Shown: positions 10,018 through 56,470, numbered from the stretch's first letter. The stretch: 64,000 nucleotides of DNA from Chloroflexota bacterium (GCA_040905225.1 JBBDRY010000110.1:26395-90394), one strand, 5' to 3'. Made by a program: numbers and translations. Notes: a model not told the origin generated them from the letters alone.

Positions 10018-11188
10018 TCGCGTCCTCCTCCAGCTGTCTGATCCACTCGCGCGCCTCGCCAGTGACGACCCTGGCAGCGCGCCGCAGTGACGGTACGTCC
10101 CGGGACCCGGTCAGGTACATCGCCGCCACGAGGCCGCTCGCAAAGCGCTCGATCCATTCGTCGACGGCAGCATCGCCCGCCAGCGCGGCCTGGAGAAGCG
10201 GCCGCGCGACACCGACCGCGGTCGCGCCCATGGCAATCGCCTTCGCCGCGTCGAGGCCGGTGCGAACGCCGCCGGTGGCGATAACGGGCAGGCCCGAGCC
10301 ACTCGCGAGCGCAACGCTGACCAGCGTCGGGATCCCCCATGAGGCCAACAGCTCGCCGAGCAGCACTCCCCGGGAGTCGTGGGTCTGACGAGCGCGCGCG
10401 GCCTCGATCGCGGCGAAGCTGGTGCCGCCGCGGCCGCCGACGTCGAGCACCGCTACGCCCGCGCCGCGCAGCCGCACGGCCGTCGTTGCGGACACGCCTG
10501 CGCCAGTCTCTTTGGCGATCACCGGGACTGAAACGCGACCGGCGACCGCCTCGATCGCGGCCAGCCAGCCGCGGGCATCCGGTTGTCCCTCGGGTTGGAC
10601 GAGCTCCTGGACCGCGTTGAGGTGGATGGCCAGGGCATCGGCGCGGATCATCGCGATCAGCGCCTCGATCTCGGCCGGTTCCACCGCCGGTCGGTCTGCC
10701 TGGGGCACGAGCTGGGCGACACCGATGTTCGCGATCAGCAATGCAGTTGGCGCCGCCTCGCGCGCCGCGGCATACGTCCGCGCGAGCGCCGGCTCGATGA
10801 GCGCGGCACGTTGGCTACCGACGCCCATGGCGAGCCCGTGTCGCTCCGCCGCGCGCGCGAGCGTCGTATTGATGGTCTCGCCACCGGCGAATCCGCCGGT
10901 CATCGCGGCGATGACGAGCGGCAGGCGGAGGCGCTTCCCGAGGAGCTCTACCGAGGTATCGATATGCTCGGGTGCGGCCTCCGGCAGTGCCTCGTGCACC
11001 AGTTGGACGTCGTCGAATCCCGCCCGGCCACCACTGGGTAACTCCTCACCGGCGGCAAGTTCGACGTGTTCGCGCTTGCGCCGCTCGATCTGCGTCGTGC
11101 GCGCCTCGCGTTCAGCGTCGCCGGCACGAGGATCGAGCGTCGACGGCCGGTCCTCGGAAGTGGTCACGGCATACAATCGTATCCCCAC
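10010..11188 (-). CDS. fni: type 2 isopentenyl-diphosphate delta-isomerase (FMN-dependent IDI-2)
   Basis: ERRKREHVELA, AAMTGG, AIHLNAVQE, VIAKETGAG and IATGGVRTG align with the B. subtilis Fni pattern. Start uncertain; ~30 aa N-terminal extension in the ORF. Confidence 0.8.
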   Translation of the reverse strand: MGIRLYAVTTSEDRPSTLDPRAGDAEREARTTQIERRKREHVELAAGEELPSGGRAGFDDVQLVHEALPEAAPEHIDTSVELLGKRLRLPLVIAAMTGGFAGGETINTTLARAAERHGLAMGVGSQRAALIEPALARTYAAAREAAPTALLIANIGVAQLVPQADRPAVEPAEIEALIAMIRADALAIHLNAVQELVQPEGQPDARGWLAAIEAVAGRVSVPVIAKETGAGVSATTAVRLRGAGVAVLDVGGRGGTSFAAIEAARARQTHDSRGVLLGELLASWGIPTLVSVALASGSGLPVIATGGVRTGLDAAKAIAMGATAVGVARPLLQAALAGDAAVDEWIERFASGLVAAMYLTGSRDVPSLRRAARVVTGEAREWIRQLEEDANG

Positions 11189-11217
11189 CTACCCCGAGTC
11201 CCCGAGGAGAGTTTCCG

Positions 11218-12222
11218 ATGCCGGAGTTGCCTCGCGTCGCCCTGATCGTCACGGGCGGCACCATCGATTCCGTCGGCGTCGATCGGCTCGATCTGGCGTG
11301 GTACATCGAGGCTGCGAAGCGGCTTCCAGAAGGCGAGCTCCTCGATAGCCTGCCCGAGCTGTCGCGGGTCGCACAGGTCGCCGAGGTCCCCTTCCGGCGG
11401 ATCCCCAGCCAGGCCATAACCTTCCAGGACTGGATTGACCTCGTCCACCGAATCCACGAGACCTTCAGCGCCGACGAGGCGGACGGCATCGTGATCACCC
11501 ACGGGACGAACACCCTCGAGGAAACGGCCTACTTCCTCCACCTGACACTGAAGACCGACCGTCCAGTCGTCATCGTCGGCAGCATGCGACCGTCGTCGGG
11601 GCTGTCCGCCGACGGCTACCTCAACGTCCTGAACGCCGTCCGGGTCGCCGCCGACCCGCAGTCGCGTGGAATGGGCGTGCTGGTCGTGCTCAACGACACG
11701 ATCCACAGCGCGCGCGACGTCACCAAGACTGCGACTTATCGCCTGGAGGCGTTCCAGGGCAGGGACCTCGGCCCGCTGGGCTACTCCGACGCCGACGGCC
11801 GGGTTCTCTACTATCACCGGCCCGTTCGGCCGCACACGACCGCGACCGACTTCGACGTCGACGAGTTGGGCGCGGACATACCCCGTGTCGACCTCGTCGT
11901 CAGCTACGTCGGCGCCGACGGAAGCGCGATCGACGCCGCCGTGGCGGCCGGTGCTCGGGGGATCGTCTCGGCCGGGACGGGCGCGGGTCGGCCGACGCCG
12001 GGCGAGGATGAGGCCCTGGCGAGGGCGCGGGCGCAAGGAGTTGTCATCTGCCAGGGCACGCGAGTCGGCTCGGGTCGCACGGTGCAGAGCCCCAAGGCGC
12101 GCGAGCGCGGAGACATCGGCGCGGACAACCTCGTGCCCTGGAAGGCGCGCATCCTGCTCACCCTGGGTCTCGCGAAGACCTCCGACCCACAGGAGCTCCA
12201 GCGGCTCTTCGACAAGTACTAG
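11218..12222 (+). CDS. L-asparaginase (type II family)
   Basis: LIVTGGTIDS and GIVITHGTNTLEETAYFL match AnsB motifs. RBS-like GGAGAG precedes ATG 11218. Confidence 0.85.
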   Translation: MPELPRVALIVTGGTIDSVGVDRLDLAWYIEAAKRLPEGELLDSLPELSRVAQVAEVPFRRIPSQAITFQDWIDLVHRIHETFSADEADGIVITHGTNTLEETAYFLHLTLKTDRPVVIVGSMRPSSGLSADGYLNVLNAVRVAADPQSRGMGVLVVLNDTIHSARDVTKTATYRLEAFQGRDLGPLGYSDADGRVLYYHRPVRPHTTATDFDVDELGADIPRVDLVVSYVGADGSAIDAAVAAGARGIVSAGTGAGRPTPGEDEALARARAQGVVICQGTRVGSGRTVQSPKARERGDIGADNLVPWKARILLTLGLAKTSDPQELQRLFDKY

Positions 12223-13436
12223 CGGAGAGTCGCGAGAACCTCCAGCTCGGAGTCGCCGCGCGCTTCCTCTTCCAGGGCGAGCAGCTCGGCGCTTACCCAC
12301 ACGGTCCCGTCGAGGATGTGGCGCGCCGTTCGGCCAATGCGAACGCCGTCGATGACCACCTGGCCGTCGGCCTCGTGCGCGGTGACGAGGACGTCCATCG
12401 CGCCGTAGGGGTTGCCGATCCTGATCCGGTCTCGATCACGGCGCTGGGTCGCCGGCCGGGTAACTCGATGCACTAGCGTGCCGTCCGTGGCGGCCGCAGC
12501 GCCGATGCAGATCGCGCCGGTCACCTGGAGGGAGCGGTGGGCGGTCTGCATGCTCATCGATCGGACCAGTAGGTCGACGGCGTCGGCCGGGACTGCGTCG
12601 CCGGTTGTGGCGACGTACTCGGACGGCGGCGCAATCATCGCTACCTTGGGCAGCCCCGGGCTCTTGCTGAGCGCCACGTCGCGGGAGGGGACGATGCCCA
12701 TCCGCTCGGCCGCGATGGCTCGGATCTCCTCCAGCGTGTCGCACAGGCCGACGTTCGCCTCGATCTCGTCGGGCGCCTCGCTGCCCCGCGCGCCAACGTC
12801 CTCGGCAAGCACGAAGACGCATGGATTGCCGGCGTCGACGAGCGAAACGCGGACGGACCGGCCGTCGGCGAGCGTCATCTCTTCGTCGGGGCGACCAGTC
12901 GGCAGCAGCTTGCCGGTGACTGAGCCGGCCGGGTCGGTGAACTCGAGGTCCACTCGCGCACCGGTGCCGGGGACTCCGGGGATCGCGTAGTCGCCGTGGC
13001 GGACGGCGCGCCCGTGACGAACCGGGACGTGCGCGACGATGATCTTGCCGGTGTTCGTGTTGTGGATACGGACGATGGTCTCGCCCTCGACTGCGGGGAC
13101 AAGCCCAGCATCGATCGCGAACGGGCCGACGGCAGACGAAATGTTGCCGCAGTTACCGCCCCAGTCGACCAGCGGCGTCTTGATGTCAACCTGGGCGAAC
13201 GTGTAGTCGATGTCGGCGTCGCCGCGGCTGGGCGGTCCGATGATCGCCGCCTTGCTCGTGTTCGGCGTAGCGCCAGCCAGTCCGTTGATCTGTCGCGCGT
13301 CCGGGCTTCCGAACACGTCCCGCAGGATGGGTTCGATCCTCTCGCGAGCGTGCGGCAGATTCTTGGCGAGAAAGAAGATGCCGCGGCTCGTGCCGCCGCG
13401 CAGGATCGAGATCGGCAGCGGACGGACGTCGCTCAT
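12219..13436 (-). CDS. PrpF/AcnD-accessory-family isomerase (3-methylitaconate isomerase or 4-oxalomesaconate tautomerase-like)
   Basis: ISILRGGTSRGIFF N-terminus and ~405 aa length. Start chosen at MSDVRPL; the ORF track start 13520 adds an Arg-rich extension. Confidence 0.7.
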   Translation of the reverse strand: MSDVRPLPISILRGGTSRGIFFLAKNLPHARERIEPILRDVFGSPDARQINGLAGATPNTSKAAIIGPPSRGDADIDYTFAQVDIKTPLVDWGGNCGNISSAVGPFAIDAGLVPAVEGETIVRIHNTNTGKIIVAHVPVRHGRAVRHGDYAIPGVPGTGARVDLEFTDPAGSVTGKLLPTGRPDEEMTLADGRSVRVSLVDAGNPCVFVLAEDVGARGSEAPDEIEANVGLCDTLEEIRAIAAERMGIVPSRDVALSKSPGLPKVAMIAPPSEYVATTGDAVPADAVDLLVRSMSMQTAHRSLQVTGAICIGAAAATDGTLVHRVTRPATQRRDRDRIRIGNPYGAMDVLVTAHEADGQVVIDGVRIGRTARHILDGTVWVSAELLALEEEARGDSELEVLATLR

Positions 13437-14338
13437 TGGTTCCGATTCTCCACCTTGGCGTAACGCTCCGCCAGCACGCGGTATTCGCCGAGCCCGACGA
13501 GGCGCTGGCGCTCGTCCCACGGAAGCAGGCGATCGGCCAATGAGCCGGACGTGCCGTCGCGGCGCAGCACCGCGAGGCCTTCCTGGACGGCGCGCGCCGC
13601 GAGACGCAGCGCGGTGTTGGCGAACAGGACGATGCGGTAACCCAATGCGCCGAGCTCCGCGGCCGAGAGCTCCGGCGTCCGGCCACCCTCCACCACGTTT
13701 GCGAGCAGTGGCGCGGGGATCTCCGCCGGCAGCCGCTGGAGCACCTCGCGCGATGGCGGCGCCTCGACGAAGACGACGTCAGCGCCCGCCTCCGCGTAAG
13801 CCCGCCCACGCTCGATCGCCTCGTCCACCCCGAGGCTGGCCAGCGCGTCCGTACGGGCGATGACGACGAGATCCTGGTCCCTGCGTGCGTCGAGCACGGC
13901 CGCCAGCTTGCCCAGGAATTCCACAGCCGGGATGACCTCGGTTCCCTCGAAGTGGCCGCAATGCTTGGGGAAGACCTGATCCTCGATCTGCACACCGGCC
14001 ACGCCGGCCCGCTCAAACGCACGCATGGCACGCGCGGCGTTCAGCGCGTTGCCGTATCCGGTATCGAGATCGGCGACCACCGGCACGTCGACGGCGGCAA
14101 CGATGCGCTCGACCTGGGTGAGCATCTCGGTCGCGGTCAGGAGCCCGATGTCGGGCACGCCGAGCTGCGCGTTCGCGATGCCGGCACCCGTGGCATAGAC
14201 CGCCTCGAAGCCGGCCTCGACCACGATTCGCGCGGTCAAAGCGTCGGCGCAGCCGACCAGCAGTAGCGGATCGCCTGGGCCTTCGATGAGTGACCGCAGC
14301 TGCACCGTTGGCGAGTCAGCGCTGGTGGACCCGGACAT
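13433..14338 (-). CDS. isocitrate lyase/PEP mutase-family lyase (methylisocitrate or dimethylmalate lyase, or oxaloacetate decarboxylase-like)
   Basis: KHCGH signature, DTGYGN motif, 301 aa. 4-nt overlap with the PrpF-like gene. Confidence 0.75.
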   Translation of the reverse strand: MSGSTSADSPTVQLRSLIEGPGDPLLLVGCADALTARIVVEAGFEAVYATGAGIANAQLGVPDIGLLTATEMLTQVERIVAAVDVPVVADLDTGYGNALNAARAMRAFERAGVAGVQIEDQVFPKHCGHFEGTEVIPAVEFLGKLAAVLDARRDQDLVVIARTDALASLGVDEAIERGRAYAEAGADVVFVEAPPSREVLQRLPAEIPAPLLANVVEGGRTPELSAAELGALGYRIVLFANTALRLAARAVQEGLAVLRRDGTSGSLADRLLPWDERQRLVGLGEYRVLAERYAKVENRNQ

Positions 14339-14344
14339 AGGTCC

Positions 14345-14941
14345 TCAGCGCTCGAGCAGCCGGCGCGCGAGCTCATCGAAGCGCTCGGCAGGCACGAAGA
14401 CGACCCCGCCGTCGTCGGCGATGACGACGTCGCCCGGGCGGACCTGGACCCCACAGATCGCGACCTGTTCTCCGAACGCGGCCGCCTCCAGCCGCCAGCG
14501 ACCGGTGATCGGCGTCCGTGTGGATGCCCAGCACGGGAAGCCGAGGCGGGCGAGGCCCTCGATGTCACGAACCGCTCCGTCTACAACGGCGCCGACGATC
14601 CCTGCGCGTCGCAGCGCATCGGCGGCCTCGGACCCGAGCACGGACACGTCCGGCCGGGGACTCTGGACGACCATCACGTCACCCGGCCGCGCGACCTCGA
14701 CGAGTCGCTTGTTGCCGAGCCTTCCCTCCGGGTCCTCCCGCCTCAGCGCGCCCGGCTCGCGCCGTTCTGGAAGGTAGCGAACTGTCGTCGCCGGTCCGAT
14801 GAGCCGCGACCCAGCGTCCGTGGGCGCCAGCCGGCTGGCCGGGACGGCGAGTCGGTAGCCCTCGCGCTCGAGCAGATCGCTGAATTCGGCCGAAAGGTCA
14901 GGAACCGTGCGCAGTCTTTCGACGACAGCCTGGTCGAGCAC
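14345..14941 (-). CDS. RraA-family protein (HMG/CHA aldolase-like)
   Basis: 198 aa. GAVVDGAVRDIEGLARLGFPCWA is the RraA/MenG-family core. Confidence 0.7.
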   Translation of the reverse strand: MLDQAVVERLRTVPDLSAEFSDLLEREGYRLAVPASRLAPTDAGSRLIGPATTVRYLPERREPGALRREDPEGRLGNKRLVEVARPGDVMVVQSPRPDVSVLGSEAADALRRAGIVGAVVDGAVRDIEGLARLGFPCWASTRTPITGRWRLEAAAFGEQVAICGVQVRPGDVVIADDGGVVFVPAERFDELARRLLER

Positions 14942-15984: not shown

Positions 15985-16467
15985 GTGACCGAGTCGCTGA
16001 CGTTCCGCGTCAATGGCGCCTCTCGGACGGTCGAGACGGAGCCATGGACTCCCGTGCTCGAGGTTCTTCGCGAGCGTCTCGGCCTGACCGGGACGAAGGA
16101 GGGCTGCGCGGTCGGGGTCTGCGGACTCTGCTCCGTCACCGTCGACGGCGAGCTCCTCTCGGCATGCCTCGTGCCGGTTGCCGCAGTCGCCGGATGCGAC
16201 ATCACCACGGTGGAGGGGCTGGCCGACCAGGAGCGGCTCTCCACGATGCAGGATCAGTTCATCGCGCATGGCGGGTTCCAATGCGGCATCTGCACGCCCG
16301 GTCAGCTCATCGCCGCAACTGCCTTGCTCGACGAGAATCCGCGCCCGAGCGAAGACGACATCCGTGACTGGCTGGGCGGCAACCTGTGTCGCTGCACTGG
16401 CTACCAACAGATCGTGGACTCGGTCAGCGCTGCCGCCGCCTCACGGGCTGGGGACGTCGCGGCATGA
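15985..16467 (+). CDS. (2Fe-2S)-binding small subunit (CoxS-like, set 2)
   Basis: CAVGVCGLCSV, CGICTPGQ and CRCTGY motifs. GTG start. ATGA overlap with the following large subunit. Confidence 0.85.
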   Translation: MTESLTFRVNGASRTVETEPWTPVLEVLRERLGLTGTKEGCAVGVCGLCSVTVDGELLSACLVPVAAVAGCDITTVEGLADQERLSTMQDQFIAHGGFQCGICTPGQLIAATALLDENPRPSEDDIRDWLGGNLCRCTGYQQIVDSVSAAAASRAGDVAA

Positions 16468-18776
16468 GCGACCATCCTGATCATCACGGGCACGACGTGC
16501 CAGCCCGCCCGGCGCCGGCTTCGCTCGCGGGACCCGAACGGCGCCTGGATGGCCGAGCGAAGGTCACCGGAAGCGCGAAGTATGCGGCCGACCGTCACAT
16601 CCCCGGCGAGCTCGTTGCCCGTTTCCTCGCCAGTCCTCTGCCGCACGCTCGCATCGTCGACATCGACGTCACGCGGGCGAGCGCCGTGCGAGGCGTTCTG
16701 GCCGTACTCACCGGCCGTGACATCGGCCCGGTCCGTATGGGCCGCCGCCTGCAGGACTGGCCGGTGCTGGCACTGGATCGAGTCCGTTTCGTCGGCGAAC
16801 ACGTTGTCGCGGTCGCGGCCGAGACGGCCGCGACGGCCGAGGAGGCAGTGGGGTTGATTCGCGTCGACTACGAGGCGCTCGACCCGATCCTCGACGTCGA
16901 GCAGGCGCTGGCGGACGGCGCCCCTGTGCTCCATCCCGAGGCCGCCGGGTACGTCTACCTGGGCGGCACGCGGCCTTCGGTCCCGCACCCGAACGTCCAG
17001 GGGCATCGCCTGGTGACGAAGGGCGAGGGCGACATCGACTCGATCTTCGCCTCGGCCGCGCGGGTGTTCGAGCACACCTTCAACATCCCGCCGCTGCCCG
17101 CCGGATACCTCGAACCGCACGCGACCATCGTCTGGATCGACGAGGACGACCTGATCCACATCGTCACTCCGAACAAGGCTCCGTTCAACCTGCGCGCGCA
17201 GATGAGTCAGGCGCTCGGTATCGCGGCCGATCGCATCGTCGTGGAGGTCCCCTACATCGGCGGCGACTTCGGCGGGAAAGGCCTCACGATCGACGAATAC
17301 GCGTGCGTCTTCCTCGCGCGGCAGACGGGTCGGCCGGTCCGGGCGGTGATGTCGGCCGCGGACGATATGGCCACGATGAACCCGCGCCATTCCGCGACGA
17401 TCGCTCTCCGTACGGCGGTCAATTCCGATGGCCGCTTCGTTGCGCACGACGCGCGGATCCTCCTCGACGGCGGCGCGTACGCGGCAGCGAAGCCCCTTCC
17501 CCATCTCACGCTGGCCGGGGCGATCAACACCCTGCCCGCGTACGCCGTACCAAACGTGCGGATTGAAGTCACCGTCGCGTACACGAACAATCCGCCGGCG
17601 GGCCACGTCCGGTCGCCGGGCGAGGTCCAGGCCCTGTTCGCGGGCGAGTCCCACGTCGACGAGATAGCGCGGGCGCTCGGCCGCGACCCGCTCGAGTTCC
17701 GGTTGCTCAACGCCGTGCGCGAAGGAGACAGCGGGATCGACGGGTCGCGCTTTCGCGAGCCGCGAGCTGTGGAGATCCTGGAGACCATCCGTCGTGAATC
17801 GCGCTGGGACGAGCCACGGCCGCCCGGAGTGGGTCGCGGAGTCGCTCTCGCCGTGCGGCATATCGGCGGCGGTAAGACGGGCCTTCGCGTCCGCTGCTCG
17901 CCCGCCGGACAGATCCGCGTCGTGACCGGCGCGCCGGACCAGGGAGGCGGTGTCGCAACTGTCATCCGGCGCGTCATGGCCGCCTCGCTGGGCATCGACG
18001 AGGCGAGCGTCGAGGTCGTCCATGGCTCGACCGCCGAGGCGCCCTTCGACATGGGTGTCGGCGGTAGCAGGGCGACCCATCTCGCGAGCCGCGCCGCCGA
18101 GCGGGCCGCCCAGCAGCTGATCGAGGCTCTCGAAGAGCGCATCGAGCCGCGCGTGGCACAGCACGTGGATTTCGAATCCGGGACCTTCGTCGGCGAACGC
18201 GGCCGCCGGCTGTCGTTCGGCGAGGCCGCGGCACTCGCGCTTTCCGGGGAGATCGAGCTGACCGCGACATACGAGGCCGCGGTCCACGACGACGATGAGC
18301 CGGGCGACTTCAACTTCTCCGGCTACGGCATCGCCGTGGAGGTCGATCGGGAGACCGGAGTCGTCCGCGTGCGCGACGCGGTGCTGGTGGCCGACGTCGG
18401 GACGGTCATAAACCCAGTCGCACACCGCGGCCAACTGCTCGGCGGGTTCGCGTTCGGGATCGGGGCCGCTCTGACCGAGGAGCTGGTGCGCGCCGATGGT
18501 CAGGTGGTCAGCGCCAACCTCGGAGAGATGAAGCTGCCGACGGCCGAGGACGTGCCGCCGCTGCGCATCGTGGAGATACCCACGGCCGTCGGACCGGGCG
18601 CGTTCGGCGCGAAGATGGCCGGCGAGCTCACTAACACGGCCGTTGCGCCGGCGATCGCCAACGCGGTGCGCGACGCCGTCGGCGTCCGCGTCACGAGCCT
18701 GCCCATCAAACCCGAGACGGTCCTCCGCGGCCTGATCGAGGCGGCGACCGAACGCGAGCGGGTGCCCACGGCTTGA
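16464..18776 (+). CDS. xanthine dehydrogenase-family molybdopterin-binding large subunit (set 2)
   Basis: 770 aa. N-terminus RLDGRAKVTGSAKYAAD...ASPLPHARI. Active-site loop PAGHVRSPGE differs from sets 1 and 3, so the substrate class is probably different. Confidence 0.8.
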   Translation: MSDHPDHHGHDVPARPAPASLAGPERRLDGRAKVTGSAKYAADRHIPGELVARFLASPLPHARIVDIDVTRASAVRGVLAVLTGRDIGPVRMGRRLQDWPVLALDRVRFVGEHVVAVAAETAATAEEAVGLIRVDYEALDPILDVEQALADGAPVLHPEAAGYVYLGGTRPSVPHPNVQGHRLVTKGEGDIDSIFASAARVFEHTFNIPPLPAGYLEPHATIVWIDEDDLIHIVTPNKAPFNLRAQMSQALGIAADRIVVEVPYIGGDFGGKGLTIDEYACVFLARQTGRPVRAVMSAADDMATMNPRHSATIALRTAVNSDGRFVAHDARILLDGGAYAAAKPLPHLTLAGAINTLPAYAVPNVRIEVTVAYTNNPPAGHVRSPGEVQALFAGESHVDEIARALGRDPLEFRLLNAVREGDSGIDGSRFREPRAVEILETIRRESRWDEPRPPGVGRGVALAVRHIGGGKTGLRVRCSPAGQIRVVTGAPDQGGGVATVIRRVMAASLGIDEASVEVVHGSTAEAPFDMGVGGSRATHLASRAAERAAQQLIEALEERIEPRVAQHVDFESGTFVGERGRRLSFGEAAALALSGEIELTATYEAAVHDDDEPGDFNFSGYGIAVEVDRETGVVRVRDAVLVADVGTVINPVAHRGQLLGGFAFGIGAALTEELVRADGQVVSANLGEMKLPTAEDVPPLRIVEIPTAVGPGAFGAKMAGELTNTAVAPAIANAVRDAVGVRVTSLPIKPETVLRGLIEAATERERVPTA

Positions 18777-21725: not shown

Positions 21726-21859
21726 TTTGCCCTCGTCACGATTGACCCCGGCCGCCGCGCGACCATAAGATACCGTTGCATACAATTACGCGGTTGACGC
21801 GGCGACCGGCTGCCGGCCGCGCCCGTTGGACCAGTTGACGCCCGGCTGGAGGAGCTCGC

Positions 21860-23356
21860 ATGGTCACCCAGACGCGTCCCGATCTCGCGGACCGGGTGCA
21901 GCCCTGGGCTGACACGCGGGAGTGGCTGGAGCGCGTCGAGGCCCGCGGGGAGCTGCGCGTCGTCCACGGCGTCGACTGGCAGGAGGGGATCGCCCAGGTC
22001 ACCGAGCTGCTCGACCACACCGACGGATCGCCGGCCGTGCTGTTCGACGACGTCCCGGGTTACGCGAGCGGCTACCGCGTGCTCGTCAACGCCAACGGAA
22101 CTCCGACACGGCAGGCAGTGACGCTCAACCTCCCTCCGTCGGCGGGCACGCACGACGGTCTGCGCAACTTCTGGCGCGGCGTCCTGGAGGATCTGCGCCC
22201 CATCCCGCCAGTCGAAGTCGAGACGGGGCCTGTAATGGAGAACATCATCGAGGGCGACGAAATCGACCTCGAGCGCTTCCCCGTTCCGATCTGGCACCCC
22301 AAGGACGGCGGGCGCTACATCGGCACCGCGAGCATGAACATGCTCCCCGATCCCGACTCCGACTGGGTCAACGTGGGCACGTACCGCAACCAGATCTTCA
22401 GCCGTGACACGATGGGCATCTACATCAGCCCCGGCAAGCACGGCAAGCTCATCCGCGAGAAATACTTCGAGCGCGGCCAGCCGTGTCCGGTGGTCGTCGT
22501 GGTCGGCGCTGATCCGCTCCTGTTCATGGCCGCCTGCGCGGAAGGCATCGCCTACGGCCAGAGCGAGCTCGGCTGGGCGGGTGGGGTTCGTGGCCGTCCG
22601 ATCGAGGTGGTGCGCGCGAAGCACACCGGGATCACGTTCCCGGCTAATTCCGAGATCGCGATCGAGGGCTGGATCGACCCGCACGAGCGGCACGCCGAAG
22701 GCCCGTACGGAGAATGGATGGGCTACTACGCGAGCGGCGAAGGGGAGACGCCGGTCATCCGCGTGAAGGCCATCTACCACCGTAATGACCCGATCCTGCT
22801 GGGCTGCCCGCAGGGCAAGCCGCCGCACGAGGACAACCGCTTCCTGGCCTACCTCAAGGCGGGGCTGATCGAGTCGCAGCTCAAGGCCGCCGGTGTCCCC
22901 AAGGTGACCGGCGTCTGGACGCCGCCCGTGGCGGGCAACCGCATGATGGTCGTCGTGGCGATCCAGCAGGCGTACCCGGGCCACGCCACGCAGGCGTTGC
23001 TGGTCGCCTCTCAGACCGGCACGTCGGCGTACGCCGGCCGAATCGCGGTCGTCGTGGACGAGGACATCGACATCTATTCGATGGACGACGTCATGTGGGC
23101 GATCATGACCCGCTGCGATCCGGTAAGAGACGTCCGCATCATCGACCGAGCCTGGAGCGGCCCGCTCGATCCGGCGATCCATCCCGACCACCGCGGCTTC
23201 AACTCGCGCCTTTTGATCGACGCCACGAAGCCGTGGGAGTGGAAGGACCGCTTTGCCGAACCTGTGGTCACGGCAGAGATGGCCGCCGAGCACCGCCGCC
23301 GCTGGGGCTGGATCCTCGATCCCAACGCGACCGATCCGCGCGTGCGGCCCGGCTAA
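21860..23356 (+). CDS. UbiD-family prFMN-dependent decarboxylase, copy 3 (divergent paralog)
   Basis: 498 aa, collinear with the other UbiD copies over its whole length. Immediately followed by cyclic amidohydrolase 23425..24846. Confidence 0.8.
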   Translation: MVTQTRPDLADRVQPWADTREWLERVEARGELRVVHGVDWQEGIAQVTELLDHTDGSPAVLFDDVPGYASGYRVLVNANGTPTRQAVTLNLPPSAGTHDGLRNFWRGVLEDLRPIPPVEVETGPVMENIIEGDEIDLERFPVPIWHPKDGGRYIGTASMNMLPDPDSDWVNVGTYRNQIFSRDTMGIYISPGKHGKLIREKYFERGQPCPVVVVVGADPLLFMAACAEGIAYGQSELGWAGGVRGRPIEVVRAKHTGITFPANSEIAIEGWIDPHERHAEGPYGEWMGYYASGEGETPVIRVKAIYHRNDPILLGCPQGKPPHEDNRFLAYLKAGLIESQLKAAGVPKVTGVWTPPVAGNRMMVVVAIQQAYPGHATQALLVASQTGTSAYAGRIAVVVDEDIDIYSMDDVMWAIMTRCDPVRDVRIIDRAWSGPLDPAIHPDHRGFNSRLLIDATKPWEWKDRFAEPVVTAEMAAEHRRRWGWILDPNATDPRVRPG

Positions 23357-23424
23357 CCCGCACGACGCGGCACCGGCCGCGACATGAAGCTGATGGAACC
23401 AGAACTGAGTCCGAAGGAGGAACC

Positions 23425-24846
23425 GTGTCCGACAAGGTCGATCTGATAGTCAAGAACGGTACCGTTGTCACGAGCGACGCCACCATGCAGGCGGACATCG
23501 CAATCGACGACGGCAAGTTCGTGGCCATCGCCCCGAGCGGCGGGCTGGGCCTCGACGCGGACGAGGTCTACGACGCGGCCGGCCAGCACGTGCTGCCCGG
23601 GGTGATCGACGGACACGTCCACTTCCGCGAGCCGGGCCTCGAGTACAAGGAGGATTGGCGCACGGGCTCGACTGCGGCCGTCTTCGGCGGCGTTACGACC
23701 GTTGTCGAGATGCCCAACACCAAGCCCAAGACTGACACCGTCGAGAACGTGGAGCTGAAGCGCCGCCTCGCCGAGGAGAAGTCCTACGTGGACTTCGGGA
23801 TCATCGGCCTGCTCGTGCAGGACAGCGTTCCGCAGCTCCGGCCGATGGCCGAGGCCGGCGTGGTCGGCTTCAAGTGCTTCCTGGGCGAGACGATCGGCAA
23901 TATCCCGGCGCCCGACGACGGAATGATGCTCGACGGCCTGCGCGAGATCGCCGCAACCGGGCTGCGCATCGGCTTCCACGCCGAGAACAACGAGATCATG
24001 CAGCACCTCATCCGCCAGATGAAGGAGGCGGGCCGCAGTGATCCGCAGGCGCACGTCGACTCGCGACCGGCGCTCGCGGAGGTCGAGTCCATCCAGCGGA
24101 TGGGCCTCTACGCGAAGCACACCGGCACCAAGATCCACATCTTCCACCTCTCGTCGCGCGAGGGGCTCGACATGATCGACGAGTGGCGCGCCAAGGGCGT
24201 CGACATCACCTGCGAGACCGGTGCCCACTACGTCTTCCTGAAGGCCGAGGACATGGACCACCTGGGCGTGCGGCTGCGCATGAACCCGCCGGTCCGCTAC
24301 GGCTCGGAGGGCCACGGCGACTACCTGCTCGAGGGCCTCAAGGACGGCCGCGTCAACGCCATCGCGACCGACCACTCGCCACACACCGCCGAGGAGAAGC
24401 TCACCGACAACATCTGGACGGCCATCAGCGGCTTCCCTGGTGTCGAGACCTCGGTGCGCTTCTTCCTGACCTTCGGCGTCAACGCCGGTCGAATGACGCT
24501 TCAGCAGTTCGTTCGGGCCTCGTCCGAGGGTCCCGCCAAGATGTGGGACATGTACCCGCAGAAGGGCTGCATCGCACTCGGATCGGACGGCGACCTGACC
24601 ATCGTCGACCTGGCACAGGAGGGGGTCATCCACGAGGACGAGCTCCACTCCAAGAACCACGTCACGCCGTTCGACGGCACGGCGACCAAGGGCGCGCCGG
24701 TGGCGACCATCGTGCGCGGCCAGATCATCATGCGCGACGGCCAGCTCGTGGGTTCACCGGCGGGACGAATGGTTCGTCCGAACCTGAGCGGCGAGAATCG
24801 CGGGGCGGGCGTGCGCGAGCTCGTCGGCGCGGGCTCGGCCGGCTGA
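23425..24846 (+). CDS. dihydroorotase-like cyclic amidohydrolase (DHOase/dihydropyrimidinase/allantoinase family), copy 1
   Basis: VIDGHVHFREPGLEYKEDWRTGS...GGVTTVVEMPNTKP is very close to type-I PyrC. GTG start with a GGAGG RBS at ~23413. Confidence 0.8.
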   Translation: MSDKVDLIVKNGTVVTSDATMQADIAIDDGKFVAIAPSGGLGLDADEVYDAAGQHVLPGVIDGHVHFREPGLEYKEDWRTGSTAAVFGGVTTVVEMPNTKPKTDTVENVELKRRLAEEKSYVDFGIIGLLVQDSVPQLRPMAEAGVVGFKCFLGETIGNIPAPDDGMMLDGLREIAATGLRIGFHAENNEIMQHLIRQMKEAGRSDPQAHVDSRPALAEVESIQRMGLYAKHTGTKIHIFHLSSREGLDMIDEWRAKGVDITCETGAHYVFLKAEDMDHLGVRLRMNPPVRYGSEGHGDYLLEGLKDGRVNAIATDHSPHTAEEKLTDNIWTAISGFPGVETSVRFFLTFGVNAGRMTLQQFVRASSEGPAKMWDMYPQKGCIALGSDGDLTIVDLAQEGVIHEDELHSKNHVTPFDGTATKGAPVATIVRGQIIMRDGQLVGSPAGRMVRPNLSGENRGAGVRELVGAGSAG

Positions 24847-24993: not shown

Positions 24994-25895
24994 TCAGCAG
25001 GCAGCGAAGCGGTTCGGATCACGTTCGCCGCTGGGTGACCACCTGGCGAACGAGTACGACGTCGACGGCGTGGTCCCCACTTCGCGGACCTGTTCGACGA
25101 GCTCCTCGAAGTCTGTCCCGTCGAGCGTAAACAGGAAGTTTCTATTCCCGTACGCACGCCGGATCAGCTCAGGCCCGATGACACGGACCACCTGGCCGAT
25201 CTCGCGGTACACGGTGACCATGTCCTGAGGGGCGTAGTAGACGAACCCGAGGATCGGGGACTGGTTCATTGGGTAGGGACGCTCCCGGTCCTCATAGTCG
25301 AGAAACCAAAGGTGGTCGTGCGCCGGGATCTTGGCGCGTACTTCCTCAAGGTCACTCGGGGCGTGTCCCATTTGGACCTCAACGAACCCAGCCTCGCGCG
25401 AAACCGGCTCGCCCTTGAGTAGCTCGTCGATCGCGACCTTTGCGTACGCCAACGGGCCTCGCGGTGACCCACTCCAGTATTCGCCGACATAGAGATCCGC
25501 GATCGGACCGCGAATCACCAGATCGGCGTCACTGACGAGTTCGGCGATGGAAGACGGAAGCGGATCGATCCCGAACCAGCAATCGCTGATCCAGTTGGCC
25601 CAGAAGCGGTCGGAGGCCGCAAGCCCGGGTTGAAACGACGGCGAGGGCAATGGCGACGCTCCGACCGGCGACGTGGGACGTGCAGTTGTGCGCTCGGTTG
25701 GCGTCGGCGAAGGGATCGCGAAATGAGTCGGCGTCGGAATGCTCGGTGGCTCGACCGATGTGCTGGGTTCCGGCGAAACCTCGATGGCGCGGGCGATAGT
25801 TCCGCCGGAGCGGCAGTTTGGAGCACAGCGGGGCGCGAGCAGCCGATGACCAGCGACACAAGGAGAGCGGTCGCAACGACGCCACGGTCTCGCAC
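24994..25895 (-). pseudogene. putative lipoprotein split by a frameshift (probable assembly error)
   Basis: ORF 25515..25895 begins MRDRGVVATALLVSLVIGC, a lipobox signal. It runs into ORF 24994..25650 in another frame through a Pro/Thr/Ser-rich linker (EVSPEPSTSVEPPSIPTPT). Confidence 0.4.
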
Positions 25896-25927
25896 TGCTT
25901 ACTTCGGCTTGGAGTTAGCGGTGGTAG

Positions 25928-26977
25928 TCAAATCCGCTCGAGCAGGATGTCCAGGCGGCGACGAAGGTTGTGCGCGCTGTTCGTGTCACCCTCTGCCAGC
26001 GCCGTGTACTCCAGATATGACGGATCGGCGTCGCGCGGTGTGGCGAGGGCCGCATGGCGCGCGACCTCGAAACGCGCGAGCGCTTCGCGCAACGCGGTTG
26101 GGGATAGATCGGCGCGTTCGCGTCGAGCACGCTTGATGGCGAGGTAGACGAGCGGCGCGCCCGCTGCGCGTGTCAACAACGGGTCACGGCCCTGGAACGT
26201 GCGCGCCATCAGCGAGAGCGGGACGAGCGCCCATTCCTTGAGTCGTTCGCGATCGTCGTGCCCCAGCGCGCGGTGCTCACGGACGAAGCGGTCCAGCTGA
26301 CCGGCGTGCAGGTCCGGCACGGCATTGCGGTCGTCGCGCTGCGCGCTCTCGAGTACAAGAAACTTCGTCGCCTGGTCGAAATGCTGGTGGCGCTCGTTCC
26401 CGTACGGCAGGCGGTCGGTGAAGAACGGATGGCGCGCCAGTTCGCGCGCGAGCTGGACCACCGAGCCGCCGATCGCGTTGCGCTTCTCGGCCGCGTTGAG
26501 CGGCTCCCCGTTGTTGAGCCGCGAGAAGAGTTCTTCGATGTCGTCTGGCGTGGCGTTCTGGATGAGGACGACGGAGAGGTAGGTGCCGGTCAGGACGCGC
26601 TGCCAGGCCGGATCCAGCTCCGAGAAGCGCTGGCCAGGACCCGGCGGCGCCGCGTCGCGCGCCTCGTCGGGAATATTCGCTTCGATGGTGGTGTAGTCGG
26701 GCGCGAGCGCCAGCTCGTCGCGCATGAAGCGCCAGATCGTGGTCAGCCGCTGCTTGCCGTCGACGATCGCGTAGACGCTGGTCGGGTGGCGGCCGCGCAG
26801 GTCGTGCAGATACATCTTCGGCACGTCATAGCCGTTGAGCAGCGAGTCGATGAAGAGCTGTTGCTGCTCGACAGACCAGACCTGCCCCTCGCGCTGGTAG
26901 GGCGCATTCTCGTCGATCGAGCTGCGCCACGCGAGCGCCTTGCCGACGGTGAAGTCGCGGGCGGCTACGCAGCGCAT
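25928..26977 (-). CDS. DUF262 (ParB/GmrSD N-terminal nuclease-like) domain protein, standalone
   Basis: QREGQVWSVEQQQLFIDSLLNGYDVP and IVDGKQRLTTI are the DUF262 (D)GQQR signature. 349 aa with no recognisable DUF1524/HNH C-terminal domain. Confidence 0.7.
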   Translation of the reverse strand: MRCVAARDFTVGKALAWRSSIDENAPYQREGQVWSVEQQQLFIDSLLNGYDVPKMYLHDLRGRHPTSVYAIVDGKQRLTTIWRFMRDELALAPDYTTIEANIPDEARDAAPPGPGQRFSELDPAWQRVLTGTYLSVVLIQNATPDDIEELFSRLNNGEPLNAAEKRNAIGGSVVQLARELARHPFFTDRLPYGNERHQHFDQATKFLVLESAQRDDRNAVPDLHAGQLDRFVREHRALGHDDRERLKEWALVPLSLMARTFQGRDPLLTRAAGAPLVYLAIKRARRERADLSPTALREALARFEVARHAALATPRDADPSYLEYTALAEGDTNSAHNLRRRLDILLERI

Positions 26978-28228: not shown

Positions 28229-29731
28229 TCAGGACTGACTGGAGAACGACGTTCCCGGTTCGAGCGGCTTTACGACGCTCGCCGGATCGACGGTCTCCAC
28301 GATGTCCTTGGGCACCTCGCACTTGGGTGGGAAGGTGGCTGGAGGAGCGGGCTTGGTGCAGTCGAGGATCATCTTCGTCTCCATCGGCCCCTTCTCCTCG
28401 CGGTGGTAGCCGTAGGTGACCGGGTTGAGGTGCCCGCCCAGGAAGTTCGGCATCACGATCAGGTCCCGATCGGCCTGGAAGCGGGTCGTCATCGCCCACA
28501 GCACCTGGTCGTTATCGAAGACGTCGATGTCATCGTCGACGATCCAGATGTGCTTGAGGATGGGGTCGACGGCGAACGCCGCCGATGCCGCGATCTTGGG
28601 CTCCCCGTCGACGCGCTTCTTCATGGCGATGAAGAGCGAGGAGCGGATCCCCATGAGTGGCAGGTTGACGGCCGTTACTGTCGGCATCGATTCGCGGACG
28701 CGCCGGTAGATGGAACCCATCCGCGGCAGGGCGCCAAGAACCAGGTGCTCGTCATGCGCGTTGAAGACGTCGACGTAGATGGGATTGCGCCGCATCGTCA
28801 CGGCCGTGATACGCATCCACGGCATCGGGCCGATCCGCGTGTAGTAGAGCGGGTACTCGCCGAATGGTCCCTCGTTCTGAACCTTCTCCGGGTCGGTGTC
28901 GACGACGCCTTCGATGATGATCTCGGCCCGCGCTGGGACGAACATGTCGACGGTCTTGGCCTTGACGACCTCGAGCGGCTCGTTGAGCAAACCGCCCATC
29001 ACCTCCAGCTCGCCGCCGATGCCGGCCAGCTTGGAGACTGCGCCCATCAACATCGCCGGGTGGTGGCCGATCGCGAGCGCGACCTGGAGCGGCTCCTTTC
29101 GCTCGCGGCGGGCACGGAGGATGTACGAGGTGTGGTGTGCCGGGTTGGACATGAAGCCGATCTGGCGCGGGCCCTGGAGCTGATGGCGGAAGATGCCGGC
29201 GTTTTCCCGGCCGGAGTCGGGATCGACCGTGATGGCGGCCGCCGAGGTGATGTACTTGCCGGAGTCGAACTCCTGGTGGATCAGCAGCGGCAGCTGGGTT
29301 ATGTCGATCTCGTCGCCCGTCTGGACGACTTCATGGACGGGGGCCTCCTCGGAGGTGACCTCCTTCCACGGGAGCGGCGAACCCTCACGCTTGCCGTACT
29401 CCGGGACCATCCCCTTGATGTCCGAGTCGATCGACAGGGCTACCCTCTCGAACGTCCCGTGCAGGTTGAGGATCAGCGGGATCTTCGAGCCCTTGATGTT
29501 GCGGAACAGCACGGCCGGGTAGCCCGGAAAGTTCGCGTCGTTCTTCATCTTGTGGACGATGGCCGCGGCCTCGAATACCGGGTCAACCTCCTCGTCCACG
29601 ACCTTGAGCTGATCGGGATAGGTGCTGACCAGCTGGTCGAGGAAGGTGCGCAGGTCCTTCCCGTGGCTCGCTGGTGTGCCGCTTGCCGGTTGCGCGGCGG
29701 TGGTTTCGCTGGGCGTGAGCGTGGTGGCCAT
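28229..29731 (-). CDS. UbiD-family prFMN-dependent decarboxylase, copy 2 (intact)
   Basis: 501 aa from MATTLTPSE. The 850-aa ORF in the track extends out of frame into the DMT gene. Lies 8 nt downstream of the DMT transporter gene. Confidence 0.85.
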   Translation of the reverse strand: MATTLTPSETTAAQPASGTPASHGKDLRTFLDQLVSTYPDQLKVVDEEVDPVFEAAAIVHKMKNDANFPGYPAVLFRNIKGSKIPLILNLHGTFERVALSIDSDIKGMVPEYGKREGSPLPWKEVTSEEAPVHEVVQTGDEIDITQLPLLIHQEFDSGKYITSAAAITVDPDSGRENAGIFRHQLQGPRQIGFMSNPAHHTSYILRARRERKEPLQVALAIGHHPAMLMGAVSKLAGIGGELEVMGGLLNEPLEVVKAKTVDMFVPARAEIIIEGVVDTDPEKVQNEGPFGEYPLYYTRIGPMPWMRITAVTMRRNPIYVDVFNAHDEHLVLGALPRMGSIYRRVRESMPTVTAVNLPLMGIRSSLFIAMKKRVDGEPKIAASAAFAVDPILKHIWIVDDDIDVFDNDQVLWAMTTRFQADRDLIVMPNFLGGHLNPVTYGYHREEKGPMETKMILDCTKPAPPATFPPKCEVPKDIVETVDPASVVKPLEPGTSFSSQS

Positions 29732-32145: not shown

Positions 32146-32667
32146 TTGGGACTAATTGCAGGACTGCTGGTGATCGCGCCTGCACCCGTCCTCTCGTGGG
32201 AATGGATTGGTTTCACGTGGGTTGACGAGAGCGACATCAGCACCTACCGATACGGGTGTTGCGATGCGAGCTATGCGGCATGGGGGACCGCGCGAAGCGA
32301 TTGGAATGCTACGAATACGCCAATTAACTTTACCGTGGAACCCAACGTCGGCGAAGAGAACATCAGATTGCGAACCGTCAACAAGAATGATGTGGAATGG
32401 GACGGAATAGCGAGCGTGACCATTGCCGGCGGTGTGATCAACTGGGTGGACGCCCGGTTAAATGAGTTCTATACCGACGGGTATGTGGCTGCGAAACGAT
32501 TGTCGGTCACGAGTCACGAGCTGGGCCACACGCTGGGGCTCGCTCACGAGAACGGCGTCGCCGTCGTCATGAATGGCATCACCTGCGGCTTCAATAGTCG
32601 GTGGTGCACGTTCGGAGTTAGTAAGCCGCAGCAGGACGATATCAATGGAATCAATGCGATCTACTAG
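32146..32667 (+). CDS. secreted zinc metalloprotease (metzincin, snapalysin/M7-like)
   Basis: HELGHTLGLAHE is the HExxHxxGxxH motif. Hydrophobic N-terminus; start ambiguous (TTG). Lies in the low-GC islet. Confidence 0.65.
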   Translation: MGLIAGLLVIAPAPVLSWEWIGFTWVDESDISTYRYGCCDASYAAWGTARSDWNATNTPINFTVEPNVGEENIRLRTVNKNDVEWDGIASVTIAGGVINWVDARLNEFYTDGYVAAKRLSVTSHELGHTLGLAHENGVAVVMNGITCGFNSRWCTFGVSKPQQDDINGINAIY

Positions 32668-38098: not shown

Positions 38099-38737
38099 TC
38101 ACCCAGCCGGCGGCGCGGGTGCGCCGTCGCCTCTGCTGGTCTCGTTTGAGTCTCCACCGCTTGCGTCGCGCGCGCGGTGACCGCCCCCGTCACTCATCAG
38201 TCGCTGCCTGGCGTCCATGACAGCGTCGAGGATCTTCACGTAGCTCCCGCAGCGGCACAGGTTGCCCCCCAGATATGCGCTCGCCTGATCACGGTCCGCC
38301 TGGGGCTCCTCGTCCAGAAGGGCCTTGGTGGCGACCACGAAACCCGGCGTGCAGTAAGAACACTGGAACCCAGTGTGTTCGACGAATGCGTCCTGGACCG
38401 GGTGGAGCTCGCCGGCCGGGCCAAGCAAACCCTCGACCGTCACGATCTCTCGACCCTCGGCCTGCATTGCGAGCATCAGACAGCCTGACACGATGCGGTC
38501 GTCGACGAGCACCGTGCAGGCGCCACACATCCCGACCCCGCAGCCCTCCCGGATGTCGATCAGGCCGACACGGTTGCGCAGGGCGTCCAGGAGGGTCTCC
38601 TGCGTGCGGACGCGAACCTGATGCTCCATGCCATTTACGCGCAGGACGAGGGTGACCCACTCCGCGTCTGGGTCCGGCGCCTCGGGGAGTGACGGGAAGG
38701 AGGGCGCCGGGGCGCTAAGGAGGTCTTGCTCCATCAC
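38099..38737 (-). CDS. (2Fe-2S)-binding small subunit (CoxS-like, set 3) with N- and C-terminal extensions
   Basis: CGVGMCGACTV, CSYCTPGF and CRCGSYVKI motifs. 212 aa. 4-nt overlap with the large subunit. Confidence 0.8.
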   Translation of the reverse strand: MMEQDLLSAPAPSFPSLPEAPDPDAEWVTLVLRVNGMEHQVRVRTQETLLDALRNRVGLIDIREGCGVGMCGACTVLVDDRIVSGCLMLAMQAEGREIVTVEGLLGPAGELHPVQDAFVEHTGFQCSYCTPGFVVATKALLDEEPQADRDQASAYLGGNLCRCGSYVKILDAVMDARQRLMSDGGGHRARDASGGDSNETSRGDGAPAPPAG

Positions 38738-41118: not shown

Positions 41119-41175
41119 CAGGCTCCGATTCTTCGGGGCAAGCGGGCCGCGCACGGTTCTCGCTGCGACCATCGT

Positions 41176-55708: not shown

Positions 55709-55789
55709 GATGCGGCTCATCGCCGAGGAGATTGTCTGCGTCCTCGCGGCCCAGGGGCTCGCGCCCAACCGTCCGCTGCGGTTACAAGC

Positions 55790-56468
55790 ATGATCTCTGT
55801 CGACGGACGCGAGGCGCTTCGGGCGCTCGCCAACCGGCCCGCGGTCGTGACGATCGATCTGCATCGCGGACACCTCGATCCCGAGGTCGCGACACTCCCG
55901 ATGCCTGCCGATCGGGCCGCGGCGCTTATGGAGCGGGTCGTCCCGCTGCTGGACCGCTACCGCGCGGCCGGGCTGCCGGTGTTCCACCTCGTGACCTGGT
56001 ATCGGGACCGCTCGGAGATCCTGAGCAACCCCATCTGGCGCTATCGCGCGGAGCGCGCGGCCGGGCTCCGCAAGCGGATCGCAGACCACAACATCGACGG
56101 AATGCCAGGCATCGAGCTGATGCCCGGAATCGCCCGGCCGGGGGACCGGATCCTGACGACGAAGAAGCGCTACGACTGCTTCGTTGGGACCGACCTGGAG
56201 TTTCGTCCTTCGCTCGGGCGACCATGACGCGCTCTTCGTGATGGGCGTTAACACCAATTCGTGTGTCCTTGCGACGTCGACTGCGGCATCGTCGCGGGAC
56301 TTCGCGGTCTTCGTGGTCGACGACGGCTGCGACTCGATGCTCGGCCGTGACCTCCACGAGGCGGCCGAATCGGTGATCAACGGATCGTTCGGATGGATCG
56401 TGACCGGCGAGCAGACGCTCGAGCTGCTCGCCGAACGAGCTGGCGCCGTCGGCGCCGCGGGAGGTTGA
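55790..56468 (+). pseudogene. isochorismatase/cysteine-hydrolase-family amidase with a 1-nt frameshift (probable assembly error)
   Basis: ORFs 55790..56227 and 56184..56468 join as ...KKRYDCFVGTDLEFVLRSGDHDALFVMGVNTNSCV... if one T is removed from the TTT at 56201-56203. Confidence 0.7.
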
Positions 56469-56470
56469 GC

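Follow-up and report, generated by a model that had tools for sequence, protein, structure and literature searches.

The stretch of DNA described here, 64,000 nucleotides (nt) from a soil bacterium of the Chloroflexota (GCA_040905225.1 JBBDRY010000110.1:26395-90394; hereafter, the window), raises the question of why a gene for a UbiD-family decarboxylase is followed immediately by one for an amidohydrolase resembling dihydroorotase (DHOase). A preliminary description, made from the sequence alone, regarded this pair, at 21860-24846, as one half of a duplicated two-gene module, the other half consisting of ubiX and a paralogous amidohydrolase gene, and proposed that a cyclic amide carboxylate is decarboxylated and its ring then hydrolyzed. 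We consider it probable that the UbiD and the DHOase-like protein perform two co-transcribed steps of a conserved, GntR-regulated breakdown of an N-heteroaromatic carboxylate, and that the second module is a remnant.

The gene pair, its conservation and the affinities of the amidohydrolase

The window was annotated with Pfam domains and with NCBIfam models that carry curated bit-score cutoffs. The pair comprises the following features.

21742-21771, + strand: promoter-like site upstream of the UbiD gene, TTGACC-18-TAAGAT (9/12 matches; a weak consensus match only)
21860-23356, + strand: UbiD-family decarboxylase dependent on prenylated flavin mononucleotide (prFMN), 498 amino acids (aa), copy 3 of the preliminary description; Pfam UbiD_N, UbiD and UbiD_C
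23425-24846, + strand: DHOase-like cyclic amidohydrolase, copy 1, intact, 473 aa; Pfam Amidohydro_1, motif HVHFREPG

As originally described, the UbiD gene leads directly into an amidohydrolase gene with the HVHFREPG motif; both genes are intact, and the spacing is operon-like, with a 68-nt gap in which no terminator-like site was found and a GTG start codon at 23425 preceded by an AAGGAGG ribosome-binding site. The UbiD protein has the three-domain architecture of its family, passes the TIGR00148 model (306 bits against a cutoff of 245), possesses the Arg and Glu motifs and has a ubiX gene available in the window. Its closest solved structure is 7PDA, that of PhdA, the phenazine-1-carboxylate decarboxylase of Mycolicibacterium fortuitum (PMC10850782). 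The match scores 362 bits over residues 28-483, and the sequences GGRYIGT and EGPxGEWxGY (here EGPYGEWMGY) align with those of PhdA. We take these positions of PhdA to be the catalytic Arg and Glu motifs. By these sequence features, the protein appears to belong to a PhdA-like branch of the family; its identity to the other two UbiD proteins of the window, which resemble VdcC, is only about 34%.

The conservation of the pair was assessed in both directions, namely, in 88 loci collected with the amidohydrolase (80 from GTDB contigs, one genome per species, and 8 look-ups) and in a reciprocal set of metagenome loci collected starting from UbiD. Where the amidohydrolase is at least 70% identical to copy 1, a UbiD gene on the same strand immediately precedes it in 23 of 24 loci, with gaps of -22 to +129 nt (median 61); the same adjacency is seen in 4 of 11 loci at 60-70% identity and in 1 of 38 below 55%. 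In this last group, which includes Binatia, Syntrophobacterales, Terriglobia and Verrucomicrobiia, the order of the genes differs, but 22 of 41 loci have a UbiD gene, and 26 of 41 a molybdenum hydroxylase, within 10 kb. Starting from UbiD, the amidohydrolase gene is directly downstream in 21 of the 23 loci with a UbiD at least 70% identical, and in 1 of 36 when the UbiD is 50-63% identical, most of these more distant genes being followed by subunits of the molybdenum hydroxylase. The proposed functional coupling of UbiD with the DHOase-like enzyme is supported by this reciprocal conservation of the gene pair.

Unsupervised clustering of neighboring open reading frames (ORFs), trimmed at their 5' ends and taken from 20-kb neighborhoods, ranked highest the large subunit of the molybdenum hydroxylase (52 loci), UbiD (51), the iron-sulfur (FeS) subunit (42) and the flavin adenine dinucleotide (FAD) subunit (41). 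These are followed by the GntR regulator, ABC and MFS transporters, asparaginase, CoxG, PrpF, an isochorismatase-family protein and a protein resembling dihydroorotate dehydrogenase (DHO_dh-like); another clustered neighbor resembles, by eye, a hydrolase of the Ntn/C45 type. Thus, the three-subunit molybdenum hydroxylase, which the preliminary description did not name, is the most constant partner, with subunits encoded beside the amidohydrolase in 53 of the 88 loci. Two loci (L020 and L098) contain the full operon: coxG, DHO_dh-like, ubiX, FAD, Mo and FeS subunits, UbiD, amidohydrolase and ABC transporter. Given that there are few UbiD genes per genome, the presence of UbiD in more than half of the neighborhoods would be far above chance. 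The association of molybdenum hydroxylase, UbiD and DHOase-like amidohydrolase survives changes of gene order across phyla.

A related arrangement was observed in metagenome loci such as L133-L156, where a UbiD 54-58% identical to that of the pair (UbiD3) has a UbiD2-like gene ahead of it and two molybdenum hydroxylase large subunits, with FAD and FeS subunits, after it. These loci represent a wider UbiD and molybdenum hydroxylase module without the amidohydrolase and, by analogy with phenylphosphate carboxylase, the tandem UbiD paralogs might form a hetero-oligomer.

What, then, is the amidohydrolase? The metal ligands of copy 1, H64, H66, K150, H185, H241 and D316, are invariant or nearly so among 88 homologs (49-100% identity), R68 and H320 are present in all 88, and N98 in 87. 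The last three residues, located by alignment, are presumably those that hold the carboxylate of dihydroorotate in DHOases; the DHSPH sequence of copy 1 aligns as part of the DHOase-type binding residues. The active-site segment HVHFREPG...YKE...MPNTKP aligns best with DHOases, of which the Staphylococcus aureus enzyme (3GRI) and human CAD read HVHLREPG...YKE/HKE...MPNTRP. By whole-length scores, copy 1 sits between families: the best match in the Protein Data Bank is L-hydantoinase 1GKR, with allantoinases next, and the hydantoinase/dihydropyrimidinase model TIGR02033 is missed (320 bits against 393). Among the DHOase models, only the subfamily-domain model TIGR00857 (pyrC_multi) is passed, at 337 bits against 279, and the equivalog cutoffs are all missed (PRK09060, 369 against 482; PRK02382, 341 against 452; PRK07575, 308 against 529).

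Copy 1 is identical to a protein encoded on a 92.5-kb contig of a metagenome-assembled genome (MAG) of Chloroflexota and named 'allantoinase AllB' by NCBI (P0001), so that a role in purine breakdown downstream of xanthine dehydrogenase has to be considered; xanthine-dehydrogenase-family enzymes are indeed encoded nearby, and the allantoinase model TIGR03178 is passed, albeit marginally (373 bits against 357.85). Two further allantoinase cutoffs are missed (PRK06189, 388 against 631; PRK08044, 288 against 688), and the motifs HVHFREPG and MPNTKP are of the DHOase type, as opposed to HVHFNEPG and MPLNSNP in allantoinase 3HM7, with Asn in place of Arg and one inserted residue. Furthermore, uricase, HIU hydrolase, OHCU decarboxylase and allantoicase are all missing from the genes recognized in the window, and purine breakdown offers no role for a UbiD. 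An allantoinase function is accordingly very improbable, and the AllB label of copy 1 is probably a misannotation.

A 44%-identical homolog from Haloterrigena turkmenica (plasmid pHTUR04, L090, 9998-12999) likewise bears the name 'allantoinase AllB', has the DHOase motifs and is encoded about 0.6 kb from the gene for a quinone-dependent dihydroorotate dehydrogenase, with one small ORF between them. In the wider clade, the AllB label may often denote misannotated enzymes of the DHOase type. Many database entries for the clade of copy 1 are called 'allantoinase AllB' or 'dihydroorotase', and these names probably misstate the physiological role.

The ubiX locus and the second amidohydrolase copy

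The second module of the preliminary description lies some distance downstream, beside two more genes related to pyrimidine biosynthesis, which that description did not name.

56690-57808, + strand: dihydroorotate-dehydrogenase-like flavoenzyme; Pfam DHO_dh, below all NCBIfam equivalog cutoffs
57805-58422, + strand: PyrE-like (orotate phosphoribosyltransferase-like) protein; TIGR00336, 145 bits against a cutoff of 106.8
59551-60165, + strand: UbiX flavin prenyltransferase, intact; Pfam Flavoprotein, PRK06029, 253 bits against a cutoff of 188
60158-61452, + strand: amidohydrolase copy 2, apparently a pseudogene of the paralog, with an 82-nt frameshifting deletion and an H-to-Q change

The DHO_dh-like protein scores 158 bits against a dihydroorotate dehydrogenase cutoff of 269 and retains the catalytic Cys/Asn motif (NVSCHN; NISCPN in PyrDB of L. 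lactis, 1EP1), which makes it a candidate reductase of a ring C=C bond. The trio of DHOase-like, DHO_dh-like and PyrE-like genes recurs in L014, L019, L020, L023, L024, L031, L032 and L098. In L031 (10001-13037), the trio is surrounded by genes for a bicupin, an M24 peptidase, an E1 dehydrogenase, another amidohydrolase and an aldehyde dehydrogenase. Because the trio is found inside catabolic clusters rather than pyr operons, it suggests a recruited set of paralogs of steps 3 to 5 of pyrimidine biosynthesis.

A simpler explanation of the same genes would be that the amidohydrolase is the PyrC of the organism and the DHO_dh-like and PyrE-like proteins its PyrD and PyrE, the adjacency to UbiD being incidental. 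The conservation of all metal-binding and dihydroorotate-binding residues, the passing scores for TIGR00857 and, in the case of the PyrE-like protein, TIGR00336, and the dihydroorotate dehydrogenase gene near the haloarchaeal homolog are all in line with this explanation. It is countered by the failure of the amidohydrolase to reach any DHOase equivalog cutoff and by the low score of the DHO_dh-like protein; moreover, no pyrB, carAB or pyrF was found among the annotated genes of the window or in L031, the amidohydrolase gene is locked to UbiD, molybdenum hydroxylase, GntR regulator and transporters across phyla, and one of two paralogs within a single window has been left to decay. A biosynthetic PyrC is therefore a quite unlikely identity: as the preliminary description held, the amidohydrolase is DHOase-like and not a canonical PyrC, since it resides in catabolic clusters without pyrB, carAB and pyrF.

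The part of that description that concerned the second module stands only partially. The ubiX gene is intact, is the only one in the window and is likely to supply prFMN to the UbiD enzymes encoded there; it shares its last 8 nt, ATGACTGA, with the reading frame that follows, as reported. The gene at 60158-61452, by contrast, is broken: its 1295 nt are not divisible by 3, and it is divided between two ORFs, 60158-60649 and 60577-61452, that lie in different frames. Alignment with the closest intact ortholog (L008, 88% DNA identity) shows a sole gap, a deletion of 82 nt at about 60494/60495, which shifts the frame and costs the protein some 27 residues, those of the strand and helix ahead of the carbamyl-lysine. 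In addition, the metal-site motif HVHFREPG, said to be kept in both copies, is found in copy 1 and reads HVQFREPG in copy 2 (CAG at 60350-60352), so that the second metal-binding His is replaced; the orthologs P0121, P0130 and P0131 read HVHFREPG, and the closest intact orthologs are 458-460 aa long. Owing to the frameshifting deletion and the lost metal ligand, copy 2 appears to be a pseudogene, barring a misassembly of the contig at this point. The paralogy of the two amidohydrolases, estimated at about 60% identity, agrees with the measured values of 65.9% over 428 aligned residues, with the frame repaired, and 71.6% at the DNA level.

An error of long-read sequencing in a homopolymer was considered as the cause of the frameshift and is disfavored by the single clean 82-nt gap together with the active-site substitution. 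Separately, two near-identical metagenome contigs from sister samples differ in a PrpF gene, which is whole in one and broken in two in the other (L002:682-1853 and L001:681-1853), so some frameshifts in these metagenome assemblies are probably assembly or sequencing errors, a caveat for pseudogene calls.

Nor does ubiX lie directly upstream of the amidohydrolase gene in any of the 88 related loci: the adjacency is unique to this contig, and the conserved neighborhood that the preliminary description proposed to look for, that of UbiD and the amidohydrolase, does exist. A more distant ortholog of copy 2 (in L006) is the last of five consecutive genes, for the FAD, Mo and FeS subunits, UbiD and amidohydrolase, and has the same 8-nt overlap. 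The ubiX-copy 2 junction might have originated by loss of an intervening block that encoded molybdenum hydroxylase and UbiD, such as the one in L020 or L006; the overlap common to both junctions, ATGNCTGA, hints at this and is too short to serve as proof of a block deletion. The claim of a duplicated module is thus not upheld: the second 'module' is a decaying remnant, composed of a working ubiX and a dead amidohydrolase paralog, and the window holds only one working pair.

A putative route of N-heteroaromatic acid breakdown

The window, with a G+C content of 60-71% and about 55 annotated ORFs, is a dense island for the breakdown of aromatic and N-heterocyclic compounds. It contains three UbiD genes and the one ubiX, three molybdenum hydroxylases of the xanthine dehydrogenase family with CoxG, CoxD and CoxE accessory genes, a bicupin, a maleate-isomerase-like gene, alpha/beta hydrolases, ABC, MFS and EamA transporters and a GntR regulator. 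Two groups of genes lie in the vicinity of the pair.

15985-18776, + strand: small (2Fe-2S) and large (molybdopterin) subunits of a xanthine-dehydrogenase-family hydroxylase; Pfam Fer2_2 and Ald_Xan_dh_C, MoCoBD_1, MoCoBD_2
10972-14941, mixed strands: asparaginase (+), PrpF-family isomerase (-), lyase of the PEP-mutase/isocitrate-lyase family (-) and RraA-like protein (-), all by Pfam

The hydroxylase belongs to the same cluster as the pair, and the same accessory genes flank the UbiD-amidohydrolase pair in L001, L003, L009, L011, L013, L016, L017 and L028. From these arrangements, we infer in what order the reactions would proceed and what kind of compound would be the substrate. The three-subunit molybdenum hydroxylase would oxidize the ring carbon beside the nitrogen to yield a cyclic amide (lactam), after which the UbiD, with prFMN formed by the UbiX at 59551-60165, would take off one ring carboxyl. 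The ring would keep a carboxylate placed as in orotate or dihydroorotate and, in some relatives, would probably be reduced first by the DHO_dh-like flavoenzyme; this reduction does not seem to be universal because the DHO_dh-like gene is present in only about 10 of the 88 loci. The binuclear-metal, DHOase-like amidohydrolase would then hydrolyze the ring open, amidases of the asparaginase and isochorismatase types would free ammonia, and the PrpF-family, isocitrate-lyase-family and RraA-like enzymes would handle the product, a tricarboxylate-like polycarboxylate. The earlier suggestion of decarboxylation of a cyclic-amide carboxylate followed by ring hydrolysis fits both the order of the genes, molybdenum hydroxylase, UbiD, amidohydrolase, and the retention of carboxylate-binding residues.

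As to the substrate, our preferred guess is a di- or tricarboxylate of pyridine or pyrimidine that converges on orotate or on a deaza-orotate such as citrazinate. Speculatively, a ring with one nitrogen, that is, a pyridine, with citrazinate as the "deaza-orotate", is weakly favored over a true pyrimidine because the accessory amidases that were recognized are of the carboxamide type and no carbamoylase was recognized. A scan with Rfam of the window and four related loci gave no riboswitch hinting at the ligand.

The order of the UbiD and amidohydrolase reactions could also be reversed, with the amidohydrolase acting first, to open one ring of a hydroxylated bicyclic compound, and leaving a carboxylate that UbiD then removes. 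Such is the course of events in the only characterized system with molybdenum dehydrogenase, amidohydrolase and UbiD/UbiX, that for lumazine (PMC12391406), and PhdA, the nearest relative of the present UbiD, acts on a polycyclic N-heteroaromatic acid. Here, however, the operon order is hydroxylase, UbiD, amidohydrolase, and the amidohydrolase keeps the residues that in DHOases bind a carboxylate already present in the substrate; the lumazine enzyme, for its part, comes from another family (Amidohydro_2, a heterotetramer) and needs a GTPase partner of which none is seen here. We regard this reversed order as unlikely.

Several observations weigh against the preferred reading, in which UbiD and the DHOase-like enzyme are successive steps of N-heteroaromatic carboxylate breakdown. 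The order of reactions is read from gene order only, and in the lumazine analog, as mentioned, the amidohydrolase precedes UbiD; the sparse distribution of the DHO_dh-like gene is a further point. The full retention of dihydroorotate-binding residues would fit plain dihydroorotase activity as well. The AlphaFold2 model of copy 1, built from a 12-sequence alignment, is too poor for structural support, with a mean predicted local distance difference test score (pLDDT) of 65 and values below 50 in the active-site segments 60-94 and 316-328. All close relatives of the pair come from uncultured MAGs; a search of plasmids retrieved only homologs of at most 48% identity, in Azospirillum, Skermanella and haloarchaea, all without UbiD, and no cultured organism with the UbiD-amidohydrolase pair. 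The amidohydrolase clade is not exclusively tied to the module with UbiD and molybdenum hydroxylase, given that the closest intact orthologs of copy 2 stand alone among unrelated genes, without UbiD, UbiX or molybdenum hydroxylase, and the distant homologs of cultured Azospirillum and haloarchaea likewise lack both UbiD and molybdenum hydroxylase.

Carrying the argument further, one might envisage an oxygen-independent route, present in uncultured soil Chloroflexota and several other phyla, in which molybdenum hydroxylase and UbiD turn a natural pyridine or pyrimidine polycarboxylate into orotate or a citrazinate-like deaza-orotate, which is dismantled by paralogs of dihydroorotate dehydrogenase, DHOase and orotate phosphoribosyltransferase run in the catabolic direction. 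In this extended form, the proposal is doubtful and is offered tentatively; if true, it would be the first role of a UbiD in the catabolism of pyridine or pyrimidine carboxylates. UbiD enzymes are sought as catalysts of reversible (de)carboxylation, and few of their natural substrates are known. In the module, which occurs in soil bacteria that are abundant and uncultured, one branch of the family is associated with molybdenum hydroxylases and with a ring hydrolase of the DHOase type; it offers a concrete starting point for testing whether N-heterocyclic acids are degraded by a new catabolic pathway, and may exemplify the recruitment of enzymes of pyrimidine biosynthesis for degradation.

Some other parts of the window deserve mention. 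The first UbiD gene (VdcC-like, 2879-4317, - strand) is split into two overlapping ORFs and, relative to its 71%-identical paralog at 28229-29700, lacks 4 nt (CCAGG----GCGCC), which gives it the appearance of a second inactivated paralog. Between the amidohydrolase gene and the bicupin and UbiD2 genes, the minus strand carries, at 24994-26977, an ORF without a Pfam match (24994-25650) and a gene with a GmrSD_N-like restriction endonuclease domain (25928-26977); in L009 and L026, UbiD2 is much nearer to the amidohydrolase than it is in the window. Upstream of the DHO_dh-like gene, at 55529-56680, ORFs compete on both strands, with three short ones on the plus strand in three frames; the region has no Pfam match and no homolog in the 88 related loci, and may be a degraded gene. 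The third molybdenum hydroxylase large subunit is contained in an ORF of 1327 aa (38734-42717, - strand), the first 550 or so residues of which have no Pfam match and may represent either an over-extended high-GC ORF or an unrecognized N-terminal fusion. The protein encoded at 43311-45581 (+ strand) joins a Hydantoinase_B/oxoprolinase domain to an acetone-carboxylase-gamma-like domain, and no Hydantoinase_A partner was recognized among the scanned ORFs. Finally, the segment 32000-34000, in which the G+C content dips to 0.62, with ORFs of low G+C at third codon positions and a fragment of a matrixin-like peptidase (32146-32667), may have been acquired from elsewhere.

Comparison with known systems

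We found no report, in a literature search of incomplete coverage, on UbiD in the catabolism of pyridine carboxylates or orotate or on the gene pair itself; the reductive urate pathway (PMC12507026) and the described cyclic amidohydrolase modules (PMC4016543) lack a UbiD step. The pairing of UbiD with a DHOase-like enzyme is apparently part of an undescribed pathway for N-containing aromatic acids.

The only described combination of molybdenum dehydrogenase, amidohydrolase and UbiD/UbiX is cluster I of lumazine/pterin degradation in Cupriavidus sp. LA-1 (PMC12391406), which among described systems also comes nearest in its logic. It shares with the present system the catabolism of an N-heterocycle, a molybdenum hydroxylase of the xanthine oxidoreductase family, a metal-dependent amidohydrolase that acts on a ring amide and a UbiD served by UbiX. 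The ring opener of cluster I, however, is an alpha2beta2 isomerase of the Amidohydro_2 type with a GTP-binding helper and acts before UbiD, whereas the enzyme described here is of the Amidohydro_1, DHOase/hydantoinase type and is encoded right after UbiD; neither an Amidohydro_2-type DHLI alpha/beta isomerase nor the helper was recognized among the annotated genes of the window. The accessory genes differ as well (here, asparaginase, PrpF, an isocitrate-lyase-like lyase, DHO_dh-like and PyrE-like), and the UbiD of the pair is PhdA-like.

With the DHOases (PyrC/CAD), the amidohydrolase shares the ligands of the binuclear metal site, the motifs HVHxREPG, MPNTxP and DHxPH and the KxxLxET loop. 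Clostridium oroticum breaks down orotate reductively, by reversing pyrimidine biosynthesis, and the DHO-dehydrogenase-like partner found in some of the present loci is reminiscent of this process. The differences from both systems are that the amidohydrolase falls below the equivalog cutoffs and is encoded not in a pyr operon but with UbiD, molybdenum hydroxylase and a GntR regulator, and that the amidases are of the carboxamide type, with no carbamoylase of the ureidosuccinase type recognized.

PhdA (7PDA) resembles the UbiD of the pair in the two motifs discussed above and in acting on an N-heteroaromatic acid, and differs from it at roughly half of the residues. We know of no case in which PhdA is linked to a DHOase-like gene or a molybdenum hydroxylase, and phenazine is not an obvious substrate for the enzymes that follow UbiD here.

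A further counterpart in overall logic is the fermentation of nicotinate by Eubacterium barkeri, in which a Mo/Se-containing nicotinate dehydrogenase, 6-hydroxynicotinate reductase and enamidase are followed by Mii, of the PrpF family, and Dml, of the isocitrate lyase family. That pathway has no UbiD step, its enamidase belongs to another branch of the amidohydrolases, and neither a B12 mutase nor an aconitase-type hydratase was seen in the window. The two clusters nevertheless have in common hydroxylation beside the nitrogen, reduction of the ring, hydrolysis of the lactam by an enzyme of the amidohydrolase superfamily and processing of the resulting acids by members of the PrpF and isocitrate lyase/PEP mutase families.

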